Below are positions 1,074 to 59,845 of a DNA stretch of 64,000 bases, in pieces. Every line of letters starts with the position of its first letter. The stretch's first letter is position 1. The notes beneath the pieces are model-generated. The model was given only the letters and a program-made list of their open reading frames with translations. It searched no databases and was not told where the DNA came from. The position numbers were made by a program, and so were the translations under genes. Source of the DNA: Lytechinus pictus (lineage: Eukaryota); assembly GCF_037042905.1 (NCBI RefSeq), contig NC_087251.1, positions 40,550,001 to 40,614,000 of the forward strand, read 5' to 3'.

Positions 1074-4000
1074 CTAATGCAATAAAAAAAATGTAGATGA
1101 AAATATATGACGATAATGATATAAAATTCCCCCTTCATAAAAATGATTGTCACCTTTGGATCAACTTGGCAACATCTGCAATTTTACTTTCCGGCTTTAA
1201 AATAATTCTTGTTAGTAGGCCTATGTTTGATGTGTTAAAGATCGTGTAAGGAATGAATATTCAATATCCTTATAAAGCTAGATCAAGCATTTGATGTTGT
1301 TTGTCGTTATATCACAGATGAATGCACATGCAGATATTCGAAATGAAAATGCGAACAATTTGGGGTCATTTTCAATTTTGTCATAAAATTTCATGCTCAA
1401 CAACCATGACAACTTACACAGCACCATGCTGGATGCTGCTGAGTAGGGCCATCCTCCCGTTTTCTATTTATCAATTCACATGTATCATTTTATATGTATT
1501 GTTATCTGTTTTTTTAACGGAAATAAATTCAAATCAATTCAATTGTCCAAATAACGGCTCAAATCCATTCACGATTTGAACCTATAGCAGTAAGAAATGA
1601 TTTTCGATAGGAGCTCGAGAAACCATCACAAGTGGAGCACCTCTGACAGTCTCGCCTGCATTACGCGATTCAATATGGTAGTAGTGCTGACTTTGAAATC
1701 GACAATAATTATTCACAAATAACACCACTCAAATAATAATAAAATACTTTGTTCAATGACCCTAAATGACATTTGACCTTAACCTAAGACTTGAGCAAAA
1801 TGATCAGTGATACTTGTTTACCCTTATGTCCACATTTCATACACTGTATCCACAAACTTTTAAAGTTATGATGGCAATTAAAAAAATACCCCCAATTTGG
1901 CCAAAGTTCATTGACCTTAAATGAACTTTCACCATGGTCATGCTACCTGAAACTCGTGCAGGATGTTCACTGATACTTGATGTCCAAGTTTAAACGTTCA
2001 AAGTTATGATGGCAATAAAAAAAAACAATTTGGCCAAAGTTCATTGACCTTAATGAACTTTGACCTTGGTCTAGAATGTTCAGTAATACTTGATTACCCT
2101 TATGTCCAAGTTTGATGAACTAGGTCCATATACTTTCTAAGTTATGATGACATTAAAAAAAAACTTAACCTTTGGTTAAGATTTCGATGTTGATTCCCCC
2201 ACATGGTCTAAGTTCATTGACCCTAAATGACCTTTGACCTTGGTCATGTGACCTGAAACTCGGGCAAGATGTTCAGTAATACTTGATTATCCTTGTCAGT
2301 TTTTAGTAATGTCTCAATTTGTTATGACTTTCTTTGTTTCATCTTGTAAATCGATGATATAGATATAATTTACCGATTGAGGGCGTATTGCTATTATGTC
2401 TGGTCATGGGAAGGGTGTCGCTTGCCCATAGTTGTTGTTTAATTTCTTTAATTTGGTGATACGAGCCCAATGACGTGAGTATTATTTGTTTATCTTAAAG
2501 TTTATTAGTTATGTTATCAGATAAGCAGAGTGGCATGCTGTAATATGGTATTTAAGTTTAGGAATTGTGTCAAAGTTATGTAGGCCGAGTGAATTTGTTC
2601 AAATGAAAACGCCGCTTACGTGTACATGCATGCATTACATAATGGAAAGCGTACAGTCGTACGTGGCGTAGTTGTGTATGAAAGGCAAGCAACTTGAATT
2701 TGGCGCCTTCAGGCGCGTGAGGAATGCATTGTTATTTACTACGTTAACATTTGAAAGAAGTAAACATTTTAAAGACTTATTTAATTGATTTGCATTAAGA
2801 AAGATGTTTGACAAGAAAGGTGAATTTGACATTCAGTATTAATAGTAATTGATATGACCTTGAAGCATATCAAGGTCACTCTTAGTTGTCGAATAGATTT
2901 GCAAGTTGAAGTGCAAGTCAACATTTACTTGTTTTTGTTTTGGAAATCTGATACAATAGATATATTATTTCTATATGGCATGTTTATGCTCAAGTCCGTT
3001 TACAGTCAATATCAAAATTGCAGATTGAACCGATCACACTGTCTGCATGCATACCGACATGGATGACTAGTGGTGGTCTGATTCTTGGGTCTTTTTTGTT
3101 TGACGTTATCACACGCCACAATCCTTATGTCTAAGTTTCATGAACTAGGTTCGTATACTTAATAAGTTATGATGCCAATTCAGTAGCCAAAGTTTATTGA
3201 CCCTAAGTGACCTCTGACCTTGGTCATGTGGCCTGAAACTCAGGCAGGATGTTCAGTAATATTTGATTACCCTTACGTTGAAGTTTCATTAACTAGGGCC
3301 ATATACTTTCTAAGTTATGATGGTATTTCAAAAACTTAACCTTAATTCGGTTAAAATTTCAACGTTGACGCCGCCGCCGGCGTCGAAAAGTGGCGCCTAT
3401 GGTCTCGCTCTGCTTTACAAACGAGACAATGTCCATGAATGAAATACACGAGCAAATTGATTTATAGAGGATCAATGACTAAATTGTATGAAGTCACAAG
3501 TCATACACAAGATTTAACAAAATATGTCATAAATGAACTAAAAATTACATGGTTTACAATTAAAAAAAAAATCTTCAAATCTCAAATCTGCAACTTCTGT
3601 CAGCATTCTTTTATTATAATTTACGGATAAACAGATTAACGGTTTATCCGTAAATCATAACAAGAGAAGGGGGGCAGACGTAGCAGATTTGAAGAAGTTA
3701 TACCTCGTTCCCACATTCCGATTTGTTACGACCGCTACAATTGGCCCTTCGTAAAAAAAATTGAACCATGCATTTTTTTTCTAGGATCATTACGATTTCC
3801 ACGAGTGATCCGAATCTGATACGATCTGATATGATCACTACGATTACATATTCCGTATAGTTAAAGATTACAACAACGCACATACAAACAAAATGGTGAT
3901 CAGAACTCAGAAGAGGGGAATGTCCTATTAACTGTACATTAGATTTTTCGAATTGAACGCCCAATTATGGTTAAATAGGACCATGGACCCACTACTACTA

Positions 4001-28000: not shown

Positions 28001-31000
28001 TTCTCAGTTAAACATTGAAATAAATAAGCCCCAGACGTCTCCTTGTTATGCCTCTCTTTTCCCCCTTTTCTTCCGTTTTTGTTTTCATTTTTCCCTCCTT
28101 TCCTCCATTTTTCATAACTTGAAAAATCGCTAGTGATAGTCGACCCAGGCCCCTCCCATGTGCCGCCGCCACCCATGGCAATACACGCAGTGATATATGA
28201 ACAGCTAATGGATTCTCTTGATAAGAATAGATTACCTGATGAAGTTATGCTTGTGTTTATTGTAGCTTCCGAGAGCAATGAGGACTCCTTGACCAAGCGA
28301 GTAAGAGAAGAAGATCTGAGTGGCTGCGTCCATCCATACCTGACAATATAAAGGTACATAATTTCATTCATTATTCAGAAAACTGAGCATTCGACAATCA
28401 TAAAATGAGGTGATAATTATAGAACGTGAAATTATTTATTACTTTATTGCTAAGAAATTTGATCTAGGAGCAAAGGAAGAAACATGTGACACATTTTTTT
28501 TTCGTATAAAGGATTCAGATTATTCAAATATCTGCCTCCCATAATATAGACCTTTTAAAAAGGCACTTCCAATATAGAGAGAATATGAAGTGTCCTTATG
28601 AAATTGATATTACAATAAAGTAATACAATTACGAGTATTTTGTTGAACAGCGATCGCTATTATAAAAAATGTACCCCCTTAAGGAAGGGATAATTATATT
28701 AAAACCGTTATTTATTTTTGCGATTTTCTCGTTACAACACAGAACCGTATGTCTATTTATCATTTTTAGACCCATGTAACGATTTACTCTACTCGAGAAT
28801 TGTTTATTAGCACAGATCTCTGAAGACCAGATAGATGTCGGTAGGACCATTCCATCCTAATCACATACGTCATAAAAAAGGGCTAAATGTGTCCACATAT
28901 AGTGCATGGGAAAATGAAGTATGCCAGGAGAGACTCCACTATTTCATGACCTAATGACCCAGGTGCATTACGGTGCGTTTCCAAATGAATGATTGGAAGA
29001 GTCCGTGAGCAGTTCTTACAGAATCATGAATATAAGAGAATGAACTTTAAAAATAAATTAATAAAAAAAAAATAATGATTTCGTATAACGCACGTATCCA
29101 CCTTCTTGGGTGCTCAAGCGCTCCTATAGCATACTGGCTAATGAGCTAGTCTACCGATTCGGTGCTCGCAGCTTTTTAAGGAATTGCTTCCTGCCGGTAC
29201 CCATTTACTTCACCTGGGTTTGAGTGCAAAATTCGGTGGGTAAATTTCTTGCTGAAGGAAGACACGCCATGTCTGGGAATTGAAAGACTAGACCACGAGG
29301 CCCCCACATCCCAGCTAACAATACCCTCTTTCATCAGCCTCTCACTCCCTCTCATGTCTTACATGGACACGCCCTCTTTCTCCAGCCTCTCATTTCTTAC
29401 ATGGACACGCCCTCTTTCACCAGCCTCTCATTTCTTACATGGACACGCCCTCTTTCACCAGCCTCTCATTTCTTACATGGACATGCCCTCTTTCACCAGC
29501 CTCTTACTCCCTCTCATTTCTTACATGGACACACCCTCTTTCACCAGCCTATCACTCCCTCTTTTTCTTACATGGACACGCCCTCTTTCACCAGCCTCTC
29601 ACTCCCTCTCATTTCTTACATGGAAACGCCCTCTTTCACCAGCCTCTAATTTCTTACATGGACACACCCTCTTTCACCAGCCATTCACTCCCTCTCATTT
29701 CTTACATGGACACTCCCTCTCATTTCTTACATGTACACACCCTCTTTCACCAGCCTCTCATTTCTTACATGGACACGCCCTCTTTCACCAGCCTCTCACT
29801 CCCTCTCATTTCTTACATGTACACACCCTCTTTCACCAGCCTCTCACTCCCTCTCATTTCTTACATGTACACACCCTCTTTCACCAGCCTCTCACTCCCT
29901 CTCATTTCTTACATGTACACACCCTCTTTCACCAGCCTCTCACTCCCTCTCATTTCTTACATGGACACACCCTCTTTCACCAGCCTCTCACTCCCTCTCA
30001 TTTCTTACATGGACGCGCCCTCTTCCATCAGCCTCTCACTCCCTCTAATTTCTTACATGGACACATTCTCTTTCACCAGCCTCTCACTCCCTCTCATTTC
30101 TCACATGGACACACCCTCTTTCACCAGCCTATCACTTCCACTTTTTTCTTACATGGACACGCCCTCTTTCACCAGCCACTCACTCCCTCTCATTTCTTCG
30201 AATGGAAACGCCCTCTTTCACCAGCCTCTAATTTCTTACATGGACACACCCTCTTTCACCAGCCATTCACTCCCTCTCATTTCTTACATGGACACTCCCT
30301 CTCATTTCTTACATGTACACACCCTCTTTCACCAGCCTCTCATTTCTTACATGGACACGCCCTCTTTCACCAGCCTCTCACTCCCTCTCATTTCTTACAT
30401 GTACACACCCTCTTTCACCAGCCTCTCACTCCCTCTCATTTCTTACATGTACACACCCTCTTTCACCAGCCTCTCACTCCCTCTCATTTCTTACATGTAC
30501 ACACCCTCTTTCACCAGCCTCTCACTCCCTCTCATTTCTTACATGGACACACCCTCTTTCACCAGCCTCTCACTCCCTCTCATTTCTTACATGGACACGC
30601 CCTCTTTCACCAGCCTCTCACTCCCTCTCATTTCTTACATGTACACACCCTCTTTCACCAGCCTCTCACTCCCTCTCATTTCTTACATGGACACGCCCTC
30701 TTTCACCAGCCTCTCACTCCCTCTCATTTCTTACATGGACGCGCCCTCTTTCATCAGCCTCTCACTCCCTCTAATTTCTTACATGGACACATTCTCTTTC
30801 ACCAGCCTCTCACTCCCTCTCATTTCTCACATGGACACACCCTCTTTCACCAACCTATCACTTCCACTTTTTTCTTACATGGACACGCCCTCTTTCACCA
30901 GCCTCTAATTTCTTACATGGACAGCCATTCACTCCCTCTCATTTCTTCGAATGGAAACGCCCTCTTTCACCAGCCTCTAATTTCTTACATGGACAGCCAT

Positions 31001-34000
31001 TCACTCCCTCTCATTTCATACATGGACACGCCCTCTTTCACCAGCCTCTCACTCCGTCTAATTTCTTACATGGACACGCCCTCTTTCACCAGCCTCTCAC
31101 TCCCTCTCATTTCTTACATGTACACACCCTCTTTCACCAGCCTCTCACTCCTCATTTCCTACATGGACACGCCCTCTTTCACCAGCCTCTCACTCCCTCT
31201 CATTTCTTACATGGACACGCCCTCTTTCACCAGCCTCTCACTCCATCTCATTTCTTACATGGACGCGCCCTCTTTCACCAGCCTCTCACTCCCTCTCATT
31301 TCTTACATGGACACGCCCTCTTTCACTAGCCTCTCACTCCCTCTCATTTCTCACATGGACACACCCTCTTTCACCATTCTATCACTTCCTCTTTTTTCTT
31401 ACATGGACACGCCCTCTTTCACCAGCCTCTCACTCCCTCTCATTTCTTACATGGAAACGCCCTCTTTCACCAGCCTCTAATTTCTTACATGGACGCGCCC
31501 ATTGTCACCAGCCATTCACTCCCTCTCATTTCATACATGGACACACCCTCTTTCACCAGCCATTCACTCCCTCTCATTTCTTACATGGACACACCCTCTT
31601 TCACCAGCCTCTCATTTCTTACATGGACACGCCCTCTTTCACCAGCCTCTCACTCCCTCTAATTTCTTACATGGACACGCCCTCTTTCACCAGCCTCTCC
31701 CTCCCTCTCATTTCTTACATGGACAAGCCCTCTTTCACCAGCCTCTCACTCCCTCTACTTTCTTACATGGACACGCCCTCTTTCACCAGCATCTCACTCC
31801 CCCTCATTTCTTACATGGACACGCCCTCTTTCACCAGCCTCTCATTACTTACATGGACACGCTCTCTTTCACCAGCCTCTTACTCCATCTCATTTAATAC
31901 ATGGACATGCCCTCTTTCATAATTCAATGAAGCCATTAGTACTCCTACATCCAGGAACCAGGAGAAAAGAGACTTCATTTTTACTTCTTTTTTTTTGCAA
32001 AACTATTATGGAACGATAATATAACGAAATAAAGTTAACATGGAAAGTTTAAATAATTGTCTTTCTGCGAGCAGTGCATCGGTATGCAAGATCATGTATT
32101 GATTGCTTCAAGACACAATCATCGTGAATCGTTTACAACCAATCCAATTATCAACCGTGTGAGAAGCATAAAATAAAAAATGTTCCCATATTATTCGGCT
32201 ATTATGATCAGTGTGAAACAATGAATGCCATCTTAAAATTAATTCATAATTAATACAGGGGCGGCCTCACATTTGGCCCCTATGATTTTTCAAGATGTAA
32301 AAAAATGAGAAAATGGGGTACAAATAAAACAAGAAAGAAGAGTATGAAATAGGTCTGGGCCGTATTCACTCAATAAATCCCTATAACTCATTTGAGAAAA
32401 ACACCTGACGTCACCTTCCGATCATTATCAAATGAAAGCATTTCGTCTCATTTCTCAGAAAAAATATGAAATAAGTCATGATCATTAAAGCATTGTGCGC
32501 TATGCTCAATGATCACTAAGGTCTGAAGTAGATATGCACTATCGCATACAATTATTCATAATCCTGATCATAATTTGCAACTAGGTGCAAAACAAAGGCT
32601 ATACTTTTCCATTTCATATGATATATAATTATTATGATAGCAAAATTAGGACCTTTTTTAGGTTCCAGCATCTTCTCATTTTACATTGTTATATGAAGTG
32701 TACAAATAATTAATTGGGACCCTGTAGACGTTAATGTAATTATGGAGGCCTTCTAGCAACAATCTACTTTTTTTTATTAATAAGGCAAATTTCAAATGGG
32801 ACTTTTTTATCAGCAAACATAATTTGTCGGCAAACGTACCTTAATATTACGTAAAAGCCCAGAGATGGAAAGACATCCTCCGTTGGAAATATTACCATGC
32901 ATTATGGTGAAAGTGTTACTAAGCTATTATTCATGTGGTTCTCGAAATACCTAATGCTATTAAGATCATTATCTGACACATTTGCCTTTGGGGATAAGTT
33001 ATTAAAACTTGAATATGATGGAATCGCATCTTTGCGTCTATTTAAAAAATAGAGTACAAGGATTCGAGTCATCTTAGTACATGTAGCGTATGGACCAGAT
33101 ACTTGAAATCACCAGAAACTGATAAACATTTGGGAGAAACAATTAGGCCTACGATTATGAGAAATAATTTCATCCAACCTTAAAAGTAAGACCAGTCAGG
33201 TAAGAACATGAGGAATTAGTAGTAGCTGATATCACGCAGGGTATGAATGGTATACTGTCAAAACGCTCCACTTTATCATCACTCCATGGGATGCGGTACA
33301 CGTCATCAATTTGCAATCGGACAAAAACAAAACAAGAATGGAGCGGACAAAAATCCTCCAGTTAAGACAGAAGGGGATGGAGAAATCTCATTTAGATATT
33401 GACATGACAAACGGCAGGATGCTCGCTTGTATTACATGTCCTGAAACAATATTGCCTTCATTTCCATCTTGATTTTGAATGTCAACGCTAGGATTATGGC
33501 GGGCCTTTAACAGAAGTAGTGTGCTTCGTCACTACTAGAGACACTCACGATATAACTACACGTAGGGAGTCTACCCTATTATATTTCTCCTACAATAATA
33601 ATGTTTGTCAACCCTGACACATAAAAAGCTGTAGCTGTAGATTAGAGAACATTATCATTATTATTAAACAGGGAAACCTTACAGCTTGAATCTTTAAATC
33701 AATTAAATGGAAATTGATTCAAAACTGGTCAGAGATCAGTTGGTAAATTCCCGGCTTTTTGGATTGAACACCATTCACTGTTGACTTCAACTGGATCGGA
33801 TCGGAGAAAGATATTAATATATATTATTGGCCATCACGATTCCATAAATGTAGTTGTTAAGTCTAGAGTCTAGACGATGAGAAGACGTGAATGAATGTGA
33901 CAGAGCGAGCAATATGGAATATAATTTGAAACGCTTCGTCAGTAGAGTAAAGAGGTTTTGGTTGAGCCACCCCGGATCAGTTACAGTCCGTCGAATGGAC

Positions 34001-37000
34001 GGTTTTAGATGGAGACATCTGCCTCGAAATAACATTTGTGCCAGAGCAATTGCACAGCACTTAACCTTCAAAATGGAGATTATGCTTTCTTAATCAATAA
34101 CAAAAAGATTCACGCCGTATACGCCGTATTCACGCCGTATATCACTAAGCAATAAGAGCTTTGCTTTTCTCTGTATGTTTCTGACATAATACTCTACACA
34201 CAGGAAATACGATGTACATATTTTGTTATGTTACCCTGAAATCATTTCCTTTTTATTCTAAATAGGGATTTTCTCTCTCGTGCTGTCTCTCCCTCTCTAA
34301 ATCTTTCTCTCAATTATCATGAAGGTAAAACACACAGTAATAACGCGATAAATAACATTTTGCTATTACATGTGGGCGAGGTATAACACTATCGAAGTTT
34401 GCACTAACTAATATTATAGTAACGGGGGTAATTTGTTAATGAGGAGTCTGTGCATTCTATATGATTATAAGCATATCAATGAGTAAATCAATATCTTACA
34501 CGAGTAGGCCGTAAAGTATGTAGGGTAGAGTAGGGTTAATAAGGCCCACTTTTTAAAATTTCCAATCATATCATTTCATACAAAGCAGTAGAAACACGAT
34601 TAGACGACATGACCAATAATTATTGATCTGCAATCGATCTACATTATTCTGTAGAAGTGTTAGAAACAGCCGGTCTAATTAGTATATTACTGACTAATGA
34701 ATATCTTTGACCGGTGGACTCATTCACTTCACCGAAATGGGGCAAATGAGCAAATTTCTAAGCAAGTGGAGTGCCTCTGGCAGTCTCGCCTGTATTACGC
34801 GATTCAATGTAGCAGCAGTGCTGACTTTAATAATGACTATAAAATAACTATAAACAAAAAACACCTTTCATATAGTAATATACTACTACGTTCATTGACA
34901 ATAAATGACATTTGACCTTGATCAAGTGACCTAAGATTTGTCAGTGATACTTGATTACCCCTATATCCACATTTCATTAACTATATCCATAAACTTTCAA
35001 AGTTATGATGGCAATTCAACAATTACCCACAACGTGCATGACGTGGCCAAAGTTCATCGACCTTGGTCATGTGACCTGAAACTCGCACAGGATGTTCAGT
35101 GACACTTGATTACTCTTGACTTATGTCCACGTTTTATGAACTAGATCCATAAACTTTCAAAGTTACGATGGTAATTCAACAAAATTAATACCCCCAATAT
35201 GACCAAAGTTCGTTGACCCCAAATGACTTTTGACTTTGGTCATTTGACCTGAAACTCGCACAGGATGTTCAGTGATACTTGATTACTCCTAACATGTCCA
35301 ATTTTTATGAACTAGATCCATAAACTTTCAGAGTTACGATGGCAATTCAACAAATACCCCCAATATGACCAACGTTCATTGACCCTATGACCTTGGTCAT
35401 GTGACCTGAAACTCGCACAGGATGTTCCTCTGAACAAGTACCTCAACAAGTATCTCTATACTTGATTACTCTTATGTCCAAGTTTTATGAACTAGATCCA
35501 TAAACTTTCAAAGTTACGATGGAAATTCAACAAATACCCCCAATATGCCCAAAGTTCAATGACCCTAAATGACATTCGACCTTGGTCAAGTGACCTGAAA
35601 CTCAGGCAGGATATTTAGTAATACTTCATTACCCCTATGTGTAAGTTTCATGAACTAGGTCTATATACTTTTTAAGTTATGATGTCATTTAAAAAACTTA
35701 ACCTTATGTTAAGATTTCGATATTGATTCCCCCAACATGGTCTAAGTTCATTTACCCTAAGTGGCCTTTGACCTTGGTCATGTGACCTGAATCCAAGGCA
35801 GGATGTTCAGTAATACTTGATTACCCTTATGTCCAAATTTCATGAACTAGATCCATATACTTTCTAAGTTATGATGTCATTTCAAAAACTTAACCTTATG
35901 GTTAGGGTTTGATGTTGACGCTGCCGCCGCCGGAAAAGCAGCGAATATAGTCTCGCTCTGCTATGTGCAGGCGAGACAGCAACAACAACATAACTGGACA
36001 TTTTAATAACCTTCTGCATAAAAATTCATAAATAGGGTATTTTCCTCACAAAACATATAATTCGAGCACGAAGTTCGAGCTGAACAATATAAGTTTTTTT
36101 CTTATAAGCATCGTTTGACACAATAAAGAGGTTACGTAGCTCAAGAAATGAATAGTGCGATAGTGAAGCTATAGCTGAAAATTTTGAGGAAAATGGCAAA
36201 AATTGAAATTTCCAACTATTTGTGTTATTTTACAGGAAGCGTATCACCCGCAAGAAATAGGCGTAATGCGCGCGCGAAACGCAAGCTGAAATTTGACGCA
36301 TAAACATGATATATTACCGTGTTTACACTTAATCGGCAATTGGTTCTGAACCAAATGCCGATGCAGAATCGGCATTTGGATTGCGTTTACACGTTGTTAC
36401 AGCTCGCGGTTCAGAACCGCGAGCCGATGCAAAAACCTGAAATGATACGCATACCTACAATATACGTCATAAATAAAGACAACGCTGGATCAGTGCGCTT
36501 ACAATTACGTCACAATGGTAAAGTAATTGAAATGCGCACAAATAGCCGGTGCAGAATCGGCTTTCTGTTTACACGTAGTAAAAAAGCCGATTCTGCATCG
36601 GCTCGCGGTTCAGAACGGTGGTGCAAATTGCCGGTTCTGAACCGCGAGCCGATTCAAGTTGCTCGCGTTTACACGCTATGAAAAAGCCGATGCTGAATCG
36701 GCTCGCGGTTCAGAACCGCGAGCCGATTCAAATGCCGATTAAGTGTAAACACGGTATTGAGGAGTATGCGTCTCATTAATCAAATAATTACCGTGTTTAC
36801 ACTTAATCGGCAATTGGTTCTGAACCAAATGCCGATGCAGAATCGGCATTTGGATTGCGTTTACACGTTGTTACAGCTCGCGGTTCAGAACCGCGAGCCG
36901 ATGCAAAAACCTGAAATGATACGCATACCTACAATATACGTCATAACAAAGACAACGCTGGATCAGTGCGCTTACAATTACGTCACAATGGTAAAGTAAT

Positions 37001-53900: not shown

Positions 53901-56900
53901 GGTTTGAACGAAGATCTTTTTAAATTGAAAATGCATCCAACAGGATGTTGCAATAATTGTAATGGGTGTATTGAAACTGTAAGTCATTTCCTCACTGAAT
54001 GCCGAAAATACATTATAGAAAGGTCTATGTTACTTGTCGAAACCCATATAACTGATACTAAGGAAATAATGACTTTACTGAAAAGTGCACAAAACAAAAA
54101 GCAAAAGTCCATCGTCCGCTTTAAGGACAAAGCGATTGTTTGAGAAACGGTAAATCTAGGTAGCTAGCTATGCAGAATTTTGGTTGCTATCTTGTTCTCT
54201 TCTTTATCAGTTAATTGTCTCATGATTATGAAATTAATATTTCACTGAGAAGACTTTTGTCATCAATGCAAGACTTTTCTGAGGTATTACAAAATGTAAT
54301 GACTTCGTGGCCACCGCTCAATAGCGAAATGATTTTAGAAATATATTTTCTTTACTTAATCATATCTTACATACTACTATATTTGAAAATTTATATATGT
54401 ATATATTTGTGTGGGTATATGCATGTATATATATCAGCTATTGGAAGTTATATAACTATTGCAATTATTATTCATTAACTTAATCAGTCGCGCGTTGGAT
54501 GTACACACGATATATGTTATAATACTTTTTTCATCTCTAACCGCCCACAATATCTTGCAACTAACCTTGGATGATTGGTCGCAAAGCATCCCACACTATA
54601 TAATTTACTGTCAATATTATGCAATGTGATAGATTATGTTTTATCTTTGTTAAAGCTTTGACTTTAAGAAAGAAAAAGGAAGACATCTCCCTGTGTCTTG
54701 CTGGGGTTTCCTTCTTTCTTTTTTCTTTGCAAAAGAGGGAGAGAAGAAAGGATAAATTAATAGTTATGACAAAAAAATATATATTAAAAAAGTAATAGAA
54801 ACAAAATTAAAATAATAAAATAACCACCAAAGTGTATTGACACTTCCCTTTTGTATTTGCTGGATTTCATGTTTGAAGGCTCTTTTTCCATACAGACAAG
54901 TGTCAATCGACTGACTGAGGGTCACAAGGAGGAGGAAGGGCTTCCTCCCACAAGGGCCCCTTTTTATTTTCCATGTAGGTAGGTTAAAGGCGTTTTACCC
55001 TGGAAAGATCAAACCTCAAGATGTTGATGGACCTGAATCCACCGACGGGACAGCCGTAACCCCGTAACTCTGGTACGGGTGTGGGAGGGGGCTCTTCTTT
55101 CTTTGCCTGTCTCTCTTTCAGTCATTTCAAATCAGTTTTTTTTTCCTATCTTATCACTTCTTGATATCATAAATCCTTTCTCTCTCCGTCTTTACTTTAT
55201 GGGTCAATATAACCCCAGGAAATATATCTTAGGCCACTGAGAATATTTGAATTGTAACTAATCAACAACAAAAAAAAAAAAAAAAAAAAAAAGGCTGAAT
55301 ATATCACAAATGGTGCTTGGTACACTAAGAATTCAAAGTACCGAAAAACTTGTTAAAACGTTATCCCCTCTTGTTAGAATGATTTTCTTTTATATAATAT
55401 CTCATAGATCGTCGATCAACAACCTTATCGTTTTCGGGAAGTAATCCCCCTATTGTTTGCTGATATCTTATTCCTCAGTTTTTTGTTTCATATGTATTTA
55501 AATGTTTTTTTTTTTTTAAGGAATGAATATACAAGAAATATTGGAAAAAAGTAATATAAAAATAATAATAATAAATAAAATTGTTACCCTACTTTTCATA
55601 CAGTGGGTGGCAAAAATAGTCAATCATGACTTATTGCCAAATAAAAACAAGGAATGGAATGATGGAATGGAGATGGAGGTAGTTACATTGGTTTTTATCC
55701 ACGTTGGGCCCATTTCTCAACACCGGGACAGGTTAGTCATTTTATCCGACGGAGTTAGCTCCAAACCGTTTCACGTAAGGTTTCCTAACTAGAATCCTCG
55801 ATACTATCGGCATAAAGAGTAGACGATGTGTATTTGAGTTTTGTCAGACGTGTATCAATCAGATATGATTATTTACGTCTGGGTCCGACCTTTAACGTCA
55901 CCATCCGAAAGATGTGACCAGGGCTCGAACCGTGAACCTCTGCATCAATTTGTAACTTCCCCCACATAGCTTGGATTACAGGCGCACGCCACAACGTCCA
56001 GTTAAGGCTACGAGACGTAGCCTTAGTCACAAAATAGCATAATTTTCAAAAAGTAAAACCATGATTAAACTTAATTATTGTGATGAATTGGGGAATGCAT
56101 ATAATACTAATAACAATGATATATAATAATACTAATAATATTAATAATAATACTTGTATAGTAGAGGCAAAATATGCATCATACATACTTAAACCACGGA
56201 AACTTGAGCATTCAATTGCTGAGAAAATGAAATTATGAATAATTCATTTCATGACTCAAAAATCACATGTGAACGCTGAGATGGGTACCCCCGGGATATC
56301 AATTTTTCATAGATCATGGAAGTGAACCATAATTTTTTTTGGTAAAATGGTGGTACTTCTACGCTTTTTATGATTCCAAATATCATCAAAATAGAGTAAC
56401 ATAAATTGTATAAATCCCAAGATACCGATATATAATGATTTGACAAATTTTTATGCATAAAGTAGCGGATAGAATTTATCAAAATCTTGATAAGGGTCTC
56501 AAAACAAAGAATAGCAGTCAAATTATGGATGGCCAGAATCTTTAATTTATCGATTAAAATGAATGGTTTTGTGGCGTTTTATTAAAGGTTTTTATAGTTT
56601 CTATGCATTACATTATCGAATGATCCTACCGGGTACCCCACATGTTTTTGCAATTGAATTTCCACTTCTATGATTGATTACATAAGATTATAATTTGTCA
56701 TATTTCTAGGTACTTCGCATTTGCATGTCATAGTTTCCCCACGTGATGCCACTACGTCATTACCATGGACCTACTACAAGGTCCATGGTCATTCTAAAAG
56801 AAGTTATGACAGGGTTGGAGGTGTCTTAAATACTTCGTCAGTTTGTTGTCCCTGATCTTGGCAAAGAGGGCATCGTAAAACGGTTATCAGACAAGTATAG

Positions 56901-59845
56901 CTCACTATCTCCGATAAAGTCAAAAAGTTAGATTTATGAAGGTGTTGAGAATCGAGCCGTTGGTTTACTAGCAGTGTTTATCAAACCGACTAACCCCATC
57001 ATAGGGAAACGGTAACCCATATCAATTCAGCCCGTTTGCTAAATTTTGGTATATCTGTCCCTCAATTGGGGCTAACTGCCATGGGGTCTAATGCCCAGAT
57101 CGTTTAACATTCGATACGTATCTTGAATTTTTCGCACTCTCTAAAAATGTGGCCCATGAATAGTGCATACATGGACCATGGAGCTGGACCTAGGTCCATC
57201 GTTTATTTAGTCATATAGCCCTATAGACTCATTGGCCCGTATTCTGAAGTCAGGTTTAACTTAGACCATGGTCTAAGTCTGTGCTAAAGTTATGGGAAGC
57301 CAAAAGTGTCAAAATTAATATTGCATTGTATGTTTCTTGTTTACTCTGCTCTTTCCTGGTTCTTTGATTGTGAAGACAATTATCTATTCATAACTCCTAG
57401 ACAATTGAGAATGATTTGAGAGTCAACTGAGCTGAAATATTACATCTCTACTGTTAGTGATTTATGTCACAATTGGCTTTCCATACTTAAACTACAACTT
57501 TAGACCTGAGTTTAAATGAGACCCGAGTTTAGAATACGGGCCATTGATGTTAAAACAAATGGATCAATTAGATGAAATGAGTAGGTTTATTGTCTGACTG
57601 GGAATTAGACAAAACAAAATTATCATAAATGGGCTAACTATATCGAAAAGTATGACATCATTATGATATGGAAAAACACACAAATATAATTAATCTAAAA
57701 GAAACCAAATTCATGAAAATTGTGGTACGTCTTACTCAGGTGCATTGAATGTCTCCCATCGCACGAATGTACGAATCAATTGCTTCCTTAGAAATTTTGT
57801 TACACTTTATAAAAATTGTCTCCTTAACTAAATATGACAATTCCATGGAATATTATTATCGTATATATATAAATTTTGTGGCATATATTGTGTTGACAAT
57901 CACATACTGTGGAAAGAATATATTATATTGTATTTTCAACAAAGGTACCATGTGGAAGTGTAAAAAGAAGGAAAAATAATAAATGGGCTAAGTGGTAATT
58001 GAACCAAATGTTTCTTAGAAGAACTCGGATTTTATCATGATTTGGGATGATTTCAAACGGGAAATGGACAAAGTGCCAAAACTGGTATAGGCCTATGATT
58101 CGAAAACTGTGCAGAGGCCATAGAGAGCGATGTAAGTGGAAAAAAAAATCTGAATATTTCTCAGCTCTACATTACTACTACAACTGCTACTACTATTAGT
58201 ACTACTAATGAATATCAGTAATTAATAACAATATATGATAATAACAATCATAACAGTAATAAAAGTAACAGTAACAATAATGGCAAATTATGTAAAGCCC
58301 ATATTTATCAGATATCCACAGTATTATGGCTTTAATAGTAAGGCACTTCTGCGTTTTATTGTCTCACCTGCAAAGCAGAGCGAGACTATCGACGCCGCTT
58401 TTCCAATGGCGGCGGCGTTGTCAACATTGAAATCTTAACCAAGTTTAGGTTTTTGAAATGTCATCATAACTTAGAAAGTACATGGACATAGTTTATGAAA
58501 CTAAGACATAAGGGTAATAGTGTATCACTGAAGATCCTGCCTGAGTTTCAGGTCACATGACCAAGGCCAAATGTCATTTTAGCGTCAACGAACTTTGATA
58601 ATGTTGAGGGTATTTGAGAATTATCATCATAACTTTAAAAGTTTATGGATCTATACAGTTCATGAAACTTGGACATAAGAGTAACAATGTATCCCTGGAT
58701 GTCCTGTGTGTATTTCAGGTCACATGACCAAGATCAAAGGTCATTTAAGGTCAATGAACTTTGGCCGTTTTGGGGGTATTTGTTGAATTTGCATCATAAC
58801 TTAGAAAGTTCGTGGATCTACACGTATGTAGTTCATTAAACATTGACATAGGGGTAATCAAGTATGTTTTGCACATGTGTTAGGTCACATGACTATGGTC
58901 AAAGGTCATGTTGGGTCAATCGACATAGTATTTTATTATCATACGAGTGTTTTTGGTGAATAATTATTCAATAGCTGTTTTCAAAGTCAGCACTGTTGGT
59001 ATATCAAAATATTGAATCGTGTAATGCCAAAGGCGTTCCACTTGTAATGACTATTTGCTACTACATACATGGGTGGAGTATGGTGATGTAGACCTATGTC
59101 TTGCCAAAGAACCATCGCTTTGAATAGGATATGAACCCCGTGCCATTATCAAATTGACAATAATAAATTTCACTCATTCTATTTTAAGCTATCATCAAAT
59201 GCTATGTGTGAATCATATTTAACACAAGCTGTCACCATTTCATTCAAACCATTTAACTGTATTCTTAAAAAAAACACGTTTGAACAAACAAAAGTACATG
59301 ACAAATACGTAATATAACGTGACAAGGTCTAATCAACAAAAACACTGACAGAAAACAATATTGTGATGTAACGTTGTAGAACCCATTGTAGAAAAGATGT
59401 TTGAACAAACACAATATTTAACGAATAAATAAACGTGATAACGTTACAAGCTCCGTTGTAAATCTTTAAGTTTACCGCCTTTGATTCATCATAGTGGTTA
59501 ATTGTTGATTGTAAACATCAATCAAGGCCTACACCTCAATCACAAGAGAAAATGATCTTGTAAACTAAATTTAGAACCTATATGCAGAAAATATATCTCT
59601 GATTGATCATTGAATACATGATACCTACCTCCGCCATTCTTGTAACACAGATAAGGGAAACGCCAGACGTTTCCAAGACCAACAGATGCTCCTATCAGAG
59701 CGAGCAGAAAGTCCAGTTGACTGGTCCAGGTGCCACGGTCTTTCTTTCCATCTTCCTTCTCCATCTTCTTATTCAGTAGCTCCTTCTCGTTTAGTTCTTT
59801 GGCTACAGGAGCCATTGCCGCAGAGTCGTGGTTCATGTCTCCCAT
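936..59845 (-). CDS. SLC6/NSS-family Na+/Cl- dependent transporter (GABA/taurine/creatine/betaine branch), 9 coding exons in window, 3' end outside window
   Basis: Exons 59845-59629, 47001-46870, 46418-46118, 45553-45415, 42723-42589, 28339-28236, 16431-16307, 7169-7057 and 1073-936 join in frame (1404 nt, 468 aa). All have AG/GT ends and matching phases. Motifs: [78 protein letters not shown]. Confidence 0.97.
1628..3429. mobile_element. Helentron/DINE-1-like non-autonomous element with internal tandem repeats (copy A, split by the solo LTR)
   Basis: Subterminal gtctcgcctgca at one end; (GCC)n plus gtctcgctctgc...cgagac stem at the other; internal tgacc-rich tandem units; homologous to copies B-D. 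Confidence 0.75.
2294..3120. mobile_element. Probable solo LTR nested in a Helentron-like element
   Basis: 827-bp insert starting TGT and ending ACA; 5-bp TSD atcct (2289-2293, 3121-3125). Removal restores the host repeat unit tacttgattatccttatgtctaagtttcatgaactagg. Confidence 0.75.
5610..6005. mobile_element. MITE with GGGCGATTCCAT TIRs and 4-bp TSD
   Basis: gggcgattccat...atggaatcgccc; atag duplicated at 5606-5609 and 6006-6009; internal repeats of gtcccgtacgacac in both orientations. Confidence 0.85.
6236..6456. mobile_element. CACT-terminated MITE rich in ttttacccaa motifs (relative at about 198-442)
   Basis: cactctaaaaag...ttttttagagtg termini; internal ttttacccaata repeats. Confidence 0.65.
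6758..6996. mobile_element. CACTG-terminated MITE with TA flanks
   Basis: ta|cactgcgaaaac...gtttttgcagtg|ta; TIRs of about 70 bp; inverted relative to the other copies; lies 60 bp from the exon 8 donor. Confidence 0.87.
7057..7169 (-). CDS. SLC6 coding exon 8 (EL4-TM8)
   Basis: tattatag|GA CCC; encodes [38 protein letters not shown]; donor CAG|gtaaga; 113 nt. Confidence 0.96.
7288..10110 (-). mobile_element. 5'-truncated L2/CR1-group LINE (RT region plus 3' UTR)
   Basis: ORF 8762-9796 has [27 protein letters not shown] and FADD; the C-terminal part continues at 7930-8377. (AAATCT)n tail at about 7288-7309. Possible 6-bp TSD aacatg at 7282-7287 and 10111-10116. Confidence 0.92.
8378..8830. 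mobile_element. Non-autonomous TIR element inserted into the LINE RT (4-bp TSD)
   Basis: Ends gggctattcca...tggaattgccc; ccat duplicated at 8374-8377 and 8831-8834. Removing it restores the LINE frame [23 protein letters not shown]. Confidence 0.88.
12951..13558. repeat. Long imperfect inverted repeat (arms about 208 bp, spacer about 190 bp), likely old foldback element or MITE
   Basis: 12951-13159 is the approximate reverse complement of 13352-13558 (ttgacacctcacaaatcc / ggatttgtgaggtgtcaa). Confidence 0.85.
14355..14583. repeat. Tandem duplication of about 112 bp
   Basis: ttctcatattcaatctcgcaagaaatggttgc...gacgccgttgacgctt occurs twice. Confidence 0.9.
16307..16431 (-). CDS. SLC6 coding exon 7 (TM7)
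   Basis: ttctttcag|G GAT; encodes [41 protein letters not shown]; donor G|gtcagt; 125 nt. Confidence 0.96.
16676..17325. mobile_element. Degenerate piggyBac-like MITE
   Basis: Starts ttaa|ccc; subterminal palindromic gctga(t/a)tcagccc motif near both ends; right end unclear. Confidence 0.45.
18058..18327. mobile_element. MITE (degenerate TIRs cagggacccgtct / agacggggccctg)
   Basis: Imperfect TIRs of about 35 bp; similar small elements at about 19089-19227 and 22835-23052. Confidence 0.6.
21438..21970. repeat. Related tgaccttgacc tandem-repeat element, about 3 units of roughly 140 bp
   Basis: Repeated tgctagtatcatacacacc...ggttaagttaaactgaagttatcgc; ends in acggacggac. Confidence 0.65.
22308..22520 (+). 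mobile_element. tRNA-derived SINE
   Basis: A box tagctcagtcgg and B box ggttcgatttc, then gtgccctttggcaaggcattaatc and gaggaccttaagcc core; A-rich end. Confidence 0.75.
23500..23720 (-). mobile_element. tRNA-derived SINE with L2-like tail
   Basis: Minus strand: gtggcccagtgg A box, ggtccgaatcc B box, core cagcaagaaatt...gcactcaacccaggtgaggtgaattggtacc, tail aagcgc...ctgcgctata. Confidence 0.75.
25794..26039. mobile_element. CACTG-terminated MITE with TA flanks
   Basis: ta|cactgcaaaaac...gtttttgcagtg|ta; long TIRs. Confidence 0.87.
28236..28339 (-). CDS. SLC6 coding exon 6 (TM6)
   Basis: ttgtcag|GTA TGG; encodes [34 protein letters not shown](R); donor AG|gtaatc; 104 nt. Confidence 0.96.
29080..29300 (-). 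mobile_element. Second copy of the tRNA-derived SINE with L2-like tail
   Basis: Shares ccggtaccca...cacctgggtt...gagtgc...aatttcttgctgaa with the 23500 copy; abuts the minisatellite. Confidence 0.7.
29320..31920. repeat. Minisatellite of about 2.6 kb, 48-bp unit with 38-bp variants
   Basis: Unit tcatttcttacatggacacgccctctttcaccagcctctcactccctc; it produces the repetitive ORFs seen in all three + frames. Confidence 0.98.
34762..35978. mobile_element. Helentron/DINE-1-like element, copy B
   Basis: Same ends (caagtggagtgcctctggcagtctcgcctg ... gtctcgctctgctatgtgcaggcgagac); about 5-6 internal units of roughly 160-190 bp. Confidence 0.8.
36317..36754. mobile_element. MITE with CCGTGTTTACACTTAATCGGCA TIRs, copy 1
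   Basis: Perfect 22-bp TIRs, TA on both sides, internal palindromic cgcggttcagaaccgcg motifs. Confidence 0.9.
36791..37237. mobile_element. MITE with CCGTGTTTACACTTAATCGGCA TIRs, copy 2
   Basis: Near-identical to copy 1, with an extra 10 nt or so around 37090-37100. Confidence 0.9.
38143..38404. mobile_element. Helentron/DINE-1-like element, short copy C
   Basis: Same terminal modules with about one internal unit. Confidence 0.7.
41690..41860. mobile_element. Short hairpin-type MITE
   Basis: Perfect inverted arms of about 50 bp: gtttcataaagctgttcgtaagttaagagcgactttaagaacgactggtga. Confidence 0.85.
42589..42723 (-). CDS. SLC6 coding exon 5 (TM5)
   Basis: ttttctaccag|GTG; encodes [45 protein letters not shown]; donor CAG|gtaaga; 135 nt. 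Confidence 0.96.
45415..45553 (-). CDS. SLC6 coding exon 4 (TM4)
   Basis: tctag|C CGC AAG...; encodes [46 protein letters not shown]; donor AAG|gtaaaa; 139 nt. Confidence 0.96.
46118..46418 (-). CDS. SLC6 coding exon 3 (TM3 and EL2)
   Basis: catcag|GT TTG...; encodes [50 protein letters not shown]...EFW; donor GA|gtaagt; 301 nt; four N-x-S/T sequons (NDT, NDS, NLT, NGT) in EL2. Confidence 0.96.
46870..47001 (-). CDS. SLC6 coding exon 2 (TM2)
   Basis: ttaccag|GT GCA TTT...; encodes [44 protein letters not shown]; donor G|gttagt; 132 nt, phase 1-1. Not in the ORF track. Confidence 0.96.
48526..48728. mobile_element. MITE with TIRs of about 50 bp and exact TSD
   Basis: tagtcttgatctggacgtt...aacgtccagatctagacta; gggtaaatc duplicated at 48517-48525 and 48729-48737 (the TSD reads as 7 bp if the ends are CTAG). 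Confidence 0.88.
49021..50382 (+). pseudogene. LINE ORF1 (gag-like nucleic-acid binding protein), frameshifted
   Basis: Pieces 49021-49350 and 49696-50382; [27 protein letters not shown] and [15 protein letters not shown] knuckles. Confidence 0.9.
50366..54143 (+). pseudogene. LINE ORF2 (AP endonuclease, reverse transcriptase, RNase H), broken by stops and frameshifts
   Basis: [68 protein letters not shown]. RNase [39 protein letters not shown]-terminal CNNC...HFLTEC. Confidence 0.93.
55826..56003 (-). mobile_element. SINE-like element with a 7SL (SRP RNA) Alu-domain-like head
   Basis: Minus strand: actggacgttgtggcgtgcgcctgtaatccaagctatgtgggg, then B box ggttcgagccc and core ctttcggatggtgacgttaaaggtcggaccc. 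Confidence 0.6.
57233..57543. mobile_element. MITE (tggcccgtattct TIRs)
   Basis: tggcccgtattctgaa...ttagaatacgggcca. Confidence 0.7.
58359..59045. mobile_element. Helentron/DINE-1-like element, copy D (opposite orientation)
   Basis: ttgtctcacctgcaaagcagagcgagac...ggcggcggcg...ggcgttccacttgt is the reverse complement of copies A and B. Confidence 0.78.
59629..59845 (-). CDS. SLC6 coding exon 1 (N-terminus, TM1)
   Basis: MGDMNHDS...[36 protein letters not shown]; donor G|gtaggt. An acceptor ttcttgcattttcag lies 8 nt upstream of the ATG (exon starts at 59853), implying an upstream non-coding exon. Confidence 0.95.

Follow-up and report, generated by a model that had tools for sequence, protein, structure and literature searches.

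A young SINE family with a 7SL-derived head in the sea urchin Lytechinus pictus, apparently the first outside vertebrates

Introduction

SINEs headed by 7SL RNA are listed only from Euarchontoglires, hagfish and a shrew mole in the available text of PMC7245038 and PMC13023118, and all of those listed carry both strands of the Alu domain. Alu, FLAM, B1 and Tu of Euarchontoglires and Urop of the shrew mole (Kosushkin 2026, PMC13023118) begin with the 5' domain of 7SL and have an internal promoter of the RNA polymerase III type, two features shared by the sea urchin element described here. They differ from it in having a central 7SL deletion, both Alu-domain strands, a poly(A) tail and L1 as partner. 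The leftmost unit of tree-shrew Tu, reported to be of dual 7SL and tRNA origin (PMC13023118), is by description only the nearest precedent for a hybrid head.

Like the urchin element, SINE1-1_EBu of the hagfish Eptatretus burgeri (PMC7245038) is 7SL-headed, independent in origin, young and present in a few thousand copies or fewer. As far as the available text of that paper goes, both are also chimeric, one component being an older tRNA-SINE lineage; both end in a microsatellite and have a partner other than L1 (inferred for the urchin). The hagfish element consists of 7SL nt 1-96 plus the 3' strand, that is, the whole Alu domain with its own B box, followed by an RTE-derived body, with duplications of about 17 bp and an (AAC)n tail; the urchin element, in contrast, combines 7SL nt 1-46 with a foreign B box, a Deu piece, short duplications and (CA)n in an invertebrate host.

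The same 46-nt 5' Alu domain, with no 3' strand, is found in the engineered SA46 and AY46 mini-Alu elements (Moldovan, Yin, Moran 2024, PMC11760393). In HeLa cells this domain alone retains 86% of Alu activity, against 13% for the no-Alu control, and it binds SRP9/14. However, SA46 and AY46 are laboratory constructs in which a CMV promoter and poly(A) are combined with human L1, whereas the urchin element occurs naturally, with a B box of its own and a 3' hairpin of LINE type. Finally, the urchin element resembles the DeuSINEs or Nin-SINEs (AmnSINE1, EbuSINE1 and sea-urchin SINE2-3_SP), in which the 5' part of the Deu domain follows a Pol III head (PMC4824008, PMC3747384, PMC5804259, PMC4758252). 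In described DeuSINEs the head is of tRNA or 5S type and the Deu domain spans about 130-140 nt, the comparison with SINE2-3_SP and its like being made by description. Every sea-urchin SINE that PMC3747384 lists has a tRNA head and CR1 or L2 as its partner, and the accessible portions of PMC4758252, PMC3747384, PMC4824008, PMC5786205 and PMC5804259 name tRNA-headed urchin SINEs only, or none.

Here we describe a dispersed repeat of Lytechinus pictus that is almost certainly a SINE with a 7SL head, a copy of which lies in a stretch of 64,000 nucleotides (the window). It defines a real and young 7SL-headed family, apparently the first outside vertebrates. The reading we favor, with a probability of about three in four, is that of a non-autonomous retroposon in which the 5' Alu domain of 7SL replaced the front half of a tRNA-headed Deu-SINE, and whose mobility would involve Pol III, a LINE and SRP9/14.

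Results

The window holds one full copy of the repeat on its minus strand (Table 1). An earlier note, made from the letters of the window alone, had likewise counted one copy there, and the head, B box and central segment that it placed on the minus strand are present as quoted. Of the span it proposed (55826..56003), the end at 56003 stands and the other end lies one base beyond the BLAST boundary. The tail, which it took to be short and unrelated, consists of a significant hairpin and an A-rich (CA)n end. In this copy one substitution disrupts a pair of the first head hairpin and one G is extra.

Other repeats were noted in the window. The sequence directly 3' of the SINE (55640-55826, minus strand) finishes in short (CATTC)-type repeats, possibly as the 3' terminus of a different retroposon, and a 23-nt palindrome (56003-56025) immediately precedes the head. 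A long tandem repeat with strong strand skew occupies positions 29323-31928, and copies of a minisatellite-like dispersed repeat family lie at 1629-3430, 34763-35978 and 58358-59027.

Table 1. Parts of the SINE copy in the window of Lytechinus pictus DNA
Feature	Positions	Strand	Basis
Full-length SINE copy, 177 nt	55827..56003	-	BLAST: other copies 95-97% identical across exactly that span
7SL-derived head, corresponding to host 7SL nt 1-46, 5' Alu domain (closing helix, two hairpins, U-turn)	55954..56003	-	
Putative 7SL A-box position (7SL nt 6-15)	55989..55998	-	Analogy with Alu and SINE1-1_EBu (Kojima 2020, PMC7245038, available text)
tRNA-like 3' half (anticodon loop to T-arm), or 3'-flank piece of a 7SL gene	55917..55949	-	Local alignment
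Canonical B box inside T-arm-like hairpin	55921..55931	-	Sequence, fold
Deu/Nin central domain, 5' piece	55881..55914	-	28/34 columns identical to L117, z 7.1
3' stem-loop, likely LINE-recognition signal	55845..55881	-	-13 kcal/mol, z -4.18
A-rich end and short (CA)n tail	55827..55844	-	No clear target duplication at the window copy

The consensus head is identical to host 7SL at 40 of 46 aligned positions, with 3 gaps; nt 5-31 match the host RNA throughout, and nt 2-32 are 100% identical to a 7SL paralogue (L037, G000:C12:4895279-4895577). Local alignment with 7SL gave z 14.6 against base shuffles; with tRNAs z did not exceed 0.0, the set comprising one tRNA-SINE head and 14 tRNA sequences of the host, each of Lys or Lys-like type. 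The Rfam Metazoa_SRP model matches window positions 56002-55944 (E 0.0014; 22.7 bits, under the gathering score of 70), and the mir-1268 model also matches the head. These comparisons bear out the 7SL-like head of the earlier note and, within the Lys-type genes and the one tRNA-SINE head compared, go against a better fit of the head to a tRNA. Likeness to 7SL ceases at SINE nt 49, equivalent to 7SL nt 46 and to the end of the closing helix and of the 5' Alu domain, close to the 44 nt or so at which similarity had been said to stop. The 3' Alu strand is absent (SINE nt 50 to the end against 7SL nt 255-299, z -1.1, with 488/500 shuffles as good), and with it the pair of Alu-domain strands that Alu, B1, Urop and Ebu1-1 retain after a central deletion. 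As in Kojima's definition of SINE1, the 5' part derives from the 7SL RNA of the host, and a uniform chimeric structure with non-7SL body and tail distinguishes the element from a plain 7SL retrocopy. A dense cluster of tRNA-Lys genes was noted at G000:C4:9700711-9735957.

Given the Alu-like head recognized by the mir-1268 and Metazoa_SRP models, a vertebrate Alu-like element could in principle have arrived by contamination or horizontal transfer. We regard such a source as extremely improbable, given the perfect match of nt 2-32 to the host paralogue L037, the spread of copies over at least 18 large contigs in native flanks, the absence of poly(A) and of the 3' Alu strand, and a body unlike that of hagfish SINE1. 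By eye, the head tracks host 7SL where the hagfish SINE1 head (Kojima 2020 Fig. S1, as available) differs, and body and tail are unrelated to those of the hagfish element; together these observations support the independent origin that the earlier note had proposed.

SINE nt 55-87 resemble a tRNA from the anticodon loop to the T-arm and hold the canonical, tRNA-type B box that had been recognized from the letters. The best Lys-like match covers 25/31 columns at z 7.3 (range z 2.0-7.3 over the 14 host tRNA-Lys-type sequences), and alignment to 7SL 3' flanks reaches z 5.5; neither ARAGORN nor Rfam calls a tRNA in the element. The middle was also tried as diverged 7SL nt 47-105, a candidate rejected as weaker than tRNA (z 2.1, 21/500 shuffles). 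The next segment of about 34 nt, which follows the T-arm, matches the full tRNA-headed Deu SINE of the same genome (Table 1). By eye it also matches the beginning of the Deu alignment rows for AmnSINE1 and EbuSINE (Kojima 2020 Fig. S4; PMC7245038, in its available part). The match is limited to these first nucleotides, and the remainder of the Deu domain is missing. The V/Meta-type central domain suggested for this segment does not hold in its Meta part, since no likeness to the 66-nt Meta consensus of the same figure could be seen by eye; what the segment matches is the 5' piece of Deu/Nin. The genomic Deu SINE itself (L117; G000:C18, near 5156000, minus strand) is a separate SINE with a tRNA head and the complete Deu domain, and may be a relative of SINE2-3_SP. 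Downstream, none of 200 shuffles was as stable as the 3' hairpin, and the (CA)n tail and this hairpin stand in place of the poly(A) tail and L1 association of Alu, B1 and Urop.

The SINE consensus measures 169-176 nt. Pattern counts in the 812-Mb genome yielded 1,347 head matches (at most 2 mismatches) and 966 exact tail matches, with reversed controls of 0 in both cases; the counts are lower bounds, and some of the copies are passive duplicates. A genome search with the window element returned 1,606 candidates, of which 40 were scored to give 51 matches; the best of these were 95-97% identical and nearly all shared both boundaries. The element is therefore multi-copy, and the single-copy outcome that would have counted against the earlier note did not arise. 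Among 100 tail places listed, 60 loci fetched in genome order gave 61 tail matches, 50 of which begin at consensus nt 1-9 and 11 of which are 5'-truncated; none of the 61 has a head other than the 7SL type. From the other end, all 20 head-picked places that had no exact tail match run into the same body, two of them interrupted by later insertions. Altogether, 80 loci produced 85 BLAST hits (68 full, 13 5'-truncated, 4 3'-cut). Median identity to the consensus is 98.2%, with 51/67 copies at 97% or more (one edge copy left out), a distribution biased young because the loci were chosen via exact words; older copies exist. Subfamilies are set apart by 2-nt and 7-nt indels, the longer form being present in 28/68 copies. 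A variant with a strongly diverged middle was rejected as a subfamily, being a single insertion duplicated once (L136/L172). Older or diverged members with a shortened or altered 7SL head (L116, L157, L177, L183 and L185) are usable for dating the family.

The copies terminate in (CA)n and contain no internal T-run. Among 79 copies, from which tandem neighbours and duplicate flanks had been removed, anchored target duplications of at least 5 nt flank 24/79, against 5.1% of shuffled flank pairs, and those of at least 8 nt flank 6/79, against 0.06%. We prefer this anchored test to the unanchored one, in which duplications of at least 7 nt were seen in 10/68 copies against 2.3%. Dispersed, short and present in at least 100 copies, with a simple-repeat tail, 5' truncations and target duplications, the family has the general properties of SINEs. 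The SINEBase rule, according to the portion of PMC3531059 available, asks for at least 60% identity to tRNA, 5S or 7SL across at least 60 nt; here the 7SL overlap is 49 nt and the tRNA-like part about 30 nt, exceeding 60 nt only jointly.

Head-to-tail arrays of the SINE were also observed, with six copies (L016 1336-2347), four (L003/L025) and two (L030), the six-copy array being bounded by one short duplication. In addition, a repeat of more than 3 kb at seven or more places (L039-L044, L083) contains the SINE in dimeric form, or in L040 in monomeric form, indicating that tandem units also change at the DNA level. That larger repeat, together with flanks common to L136/L172, L064/L065, L080/L095 and L129/L130, would be expected if the element did not propagate itself, that is, if the copies were chimeric 7SL retrocopies or a repeat spread passively within larger duplications. 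Uniform chimeric structure in 68/85 hits, subfamily-specific indels, flanks that are mostly unrelated, target duplications, 5' truncations and an own B box make this explanation highly improbable, and we retain that of a self-propagating retroposon.

An RF00017 search returned 25 matches, 7 of which are full 7SL genes (272-283 bits). In six of these seven (L031-L036, G000 C10 and C1) a canonical B box lies 21-45 nt beyond the end of the gene, downstream of the terminator, against a background of 26 in 2,550 50-nt windows, and the flanks that bear it are otherwise divergent. In the C10 cluster this box lies inside a perfect T-arm-like hairpin. The paralogue L037 has no downstream B box but shares a closing-helix pair with the SINE, and it is possibly the donor type or a pseudogene. 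Inside the host genes no B box was matched at the position used by Alu, and a weaker 9-letter match occurs near nt 272 in 6/7. If this downstream box is what drives host 7SL transcription, as may be the case, retrocopies of 7SL would leave it behind, a possible explanation for the persistence of the head only in fusion with a B box. Three 7SL genes of a cluster have SINE copies ending about 40 nt upstream of them (L031 876-1044 and 1289-1457, L035 1293-1461, L036 1314-1461), probably one insertion multiplied along with the cluster.

The flanking boxes bring in another possible source for the middle of the element. A single 7SL gene unit could have supplied both head and B box by losing the segment from nt 47 of 7SL up to and including the terminator, with the Deu piece and tail added later. 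The frequency of downstream boxes fits such a course, as does the alignment of the SINE middle to four B-box flanks at z 3.7-5.5. However, the resemblance of the 7SL flank to a tRNA 3' half makes the two B-box sources hard to tell apart, three of the six B-box genes belong to one tandem cluster, two events are required instead of one, and exclusion of the B-box core lowers the fit of the same four flanks to z 1.9-2.8, the consensus middle then fitting 7SL flanks and tRNA alike (z 2.8 vs 3.0). Furthermore, left of the B box the rare L136/L172 variant is nearer to tRNA, specifically tRNA-Lys (z up to 4.6), than to the 7SL flanks (z up to 2.6). We consider descent from one 7SL unit unlikely, and lean towards a swap of the head of a tRNA-SINE.

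The consensus can form every one of the 13 canonical pairs of the 5' Alu domain, two of them as G-U. In the closing helix two pairs are changed on both sides relative to the common host 7SL; one matches the paralogue L037, and the other is terminal and constitutes weak evidence, its consensus base occurring in just 39/68 copies. Protein-free folding predicts -8.9 kcal/mol for the head vs -15.4 kcal/mol for 7SL, with a closing-helix probability of 4-8% in the head alone and a first-hairpin probability of 12% in the full-length ensemble. The second loop differs among copies, with an extra A and, in about 30/68 of them, the loss of 2 nt, and mutation of inserted copies in the head (2.3-2.9%) is not below that of the tail (1.4%). 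A host SRP14 gene is present, an exon of which is 90% identical to that of Strongylocentrotus purpuratus and 69-76% to those of starfish and brittle star, as befits an echinoid host. Of the earlier claim that the element keeps the SRP9/14-binding 5' domain, sequence and possible pairing are upheld, and binding is putative; we put a working SRP9/14 role of the head at even odds.

The head could instead be a promoter part only, providing A box and start site, with SRP9/14 binding lost or irrelevant and mobility depending, as for conventional tRNA SINEs, on the 3' hairpin of LINE type. The weak predicted closing helix with its competing folds, the variable second loop, the copies with a damaged head (L116, L157) and the loss of the 3' Alu strand are consistent with this. 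However, the stretch of the consensus identical to 7SL (nt 5-31) reaches well past the A box and is almost unchanged even in the variant with the strongly diverged middle, the head boundary coincides with the domain end, and the closing helix is preserved via two-sided changes. A promoter-only head is a real possibility that we hold at somewhat below even.

Discussion

In the origin we favor, host 7SL nt 1-46 would have replaced the acceptor strand, D-arm and A box of a tRNA-headed Deu-SINE, probably via a template switch. RNA polymerase III would read a hybrid promoter composed of the 7SL A box and the captured B box, and the transcript, with no internal T-run, would end in flanking DNA. The reverse transcriptase would come from a LINE, most likely one of the L2/CR1 group, and would recognize the 3' hairpin and prime at the (CA)n tail. 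Short variable duplications, a microsatellite tail and a 3' hairpin fit a partner of the L2/CR1 type. Folded as a 5' Alu domain and bound by SRP9/14, the head would carry the RNA to ribosomes making the LINE protein, a delivery modelled on the 46-nt Alu domain result in HeLa cells.

Genome pattern searches did not recover a tRNA-headed parent with the body and tail of the SINE. A Deu pattern search gave 2 places, the diverged family member L116 and the unrelated tRNA-Deu SINE L117, and a further search gave 59 places, 16 of which were fetched; none of these was tRNA-headed and 2 are probably unrelated. For a partner LINE with the SINE tail, two patterns that demand near identity gave 37 and 14 places; the 16 fetched of these 51 were all truncated or variant SINE copies, and the comparison of the tail with LINE 3' ends proposed in the earlier note thus yielded no LINE end among them. 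A weak-word tail search in 336 kb of DNA met SINE copies and chance hits only, and no look-alikes of the SINE were found in the other genomes compared.

No 7SL SINE of an echinoderm or other invertebrate was found in a literature search covering few subscription papers. No catalogue entry for the family turned up in the papers searched, and a database entry (Repbase, Dfam) may exist; we judge it quite probable that the family is absent from papers, and only slightly better than even that it is absent from databases. The phrase 'downstream B box' for 7SL likewise had no match in a search of titles and listings, and the downstream B box of host 7SL genes constitutes a separate testable point on Pol III promoters.

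As of February 2026, according to the available text of PMC13023118, 7SL SINEs had three vertebrate origins, in all of which the whole Alu domain was kept, a retention regarded as a constraint. An additional, fourth origin in an invertebrate, with the 5' domain only, would provide a natural test of whether SRP9/14 binding helps retroposons generally or just those of the poly(A)/L1 route. The urchin head agrees with the 46-nt minimum established in the laboratory. We tentatively suggest, below even odds, that an invertebrate has independently evolved the minimal Alu, whose 46-nt putative SRP9/14 domain would hijack a non-L1 LINE at the ribosome and whose B box would have been captured because the main B box of urchin 7SL lies outside the transcript, past the terminator. 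Young copies of the SINE are potential population markers, and urchin embryos make the SRP9/14 test practical.
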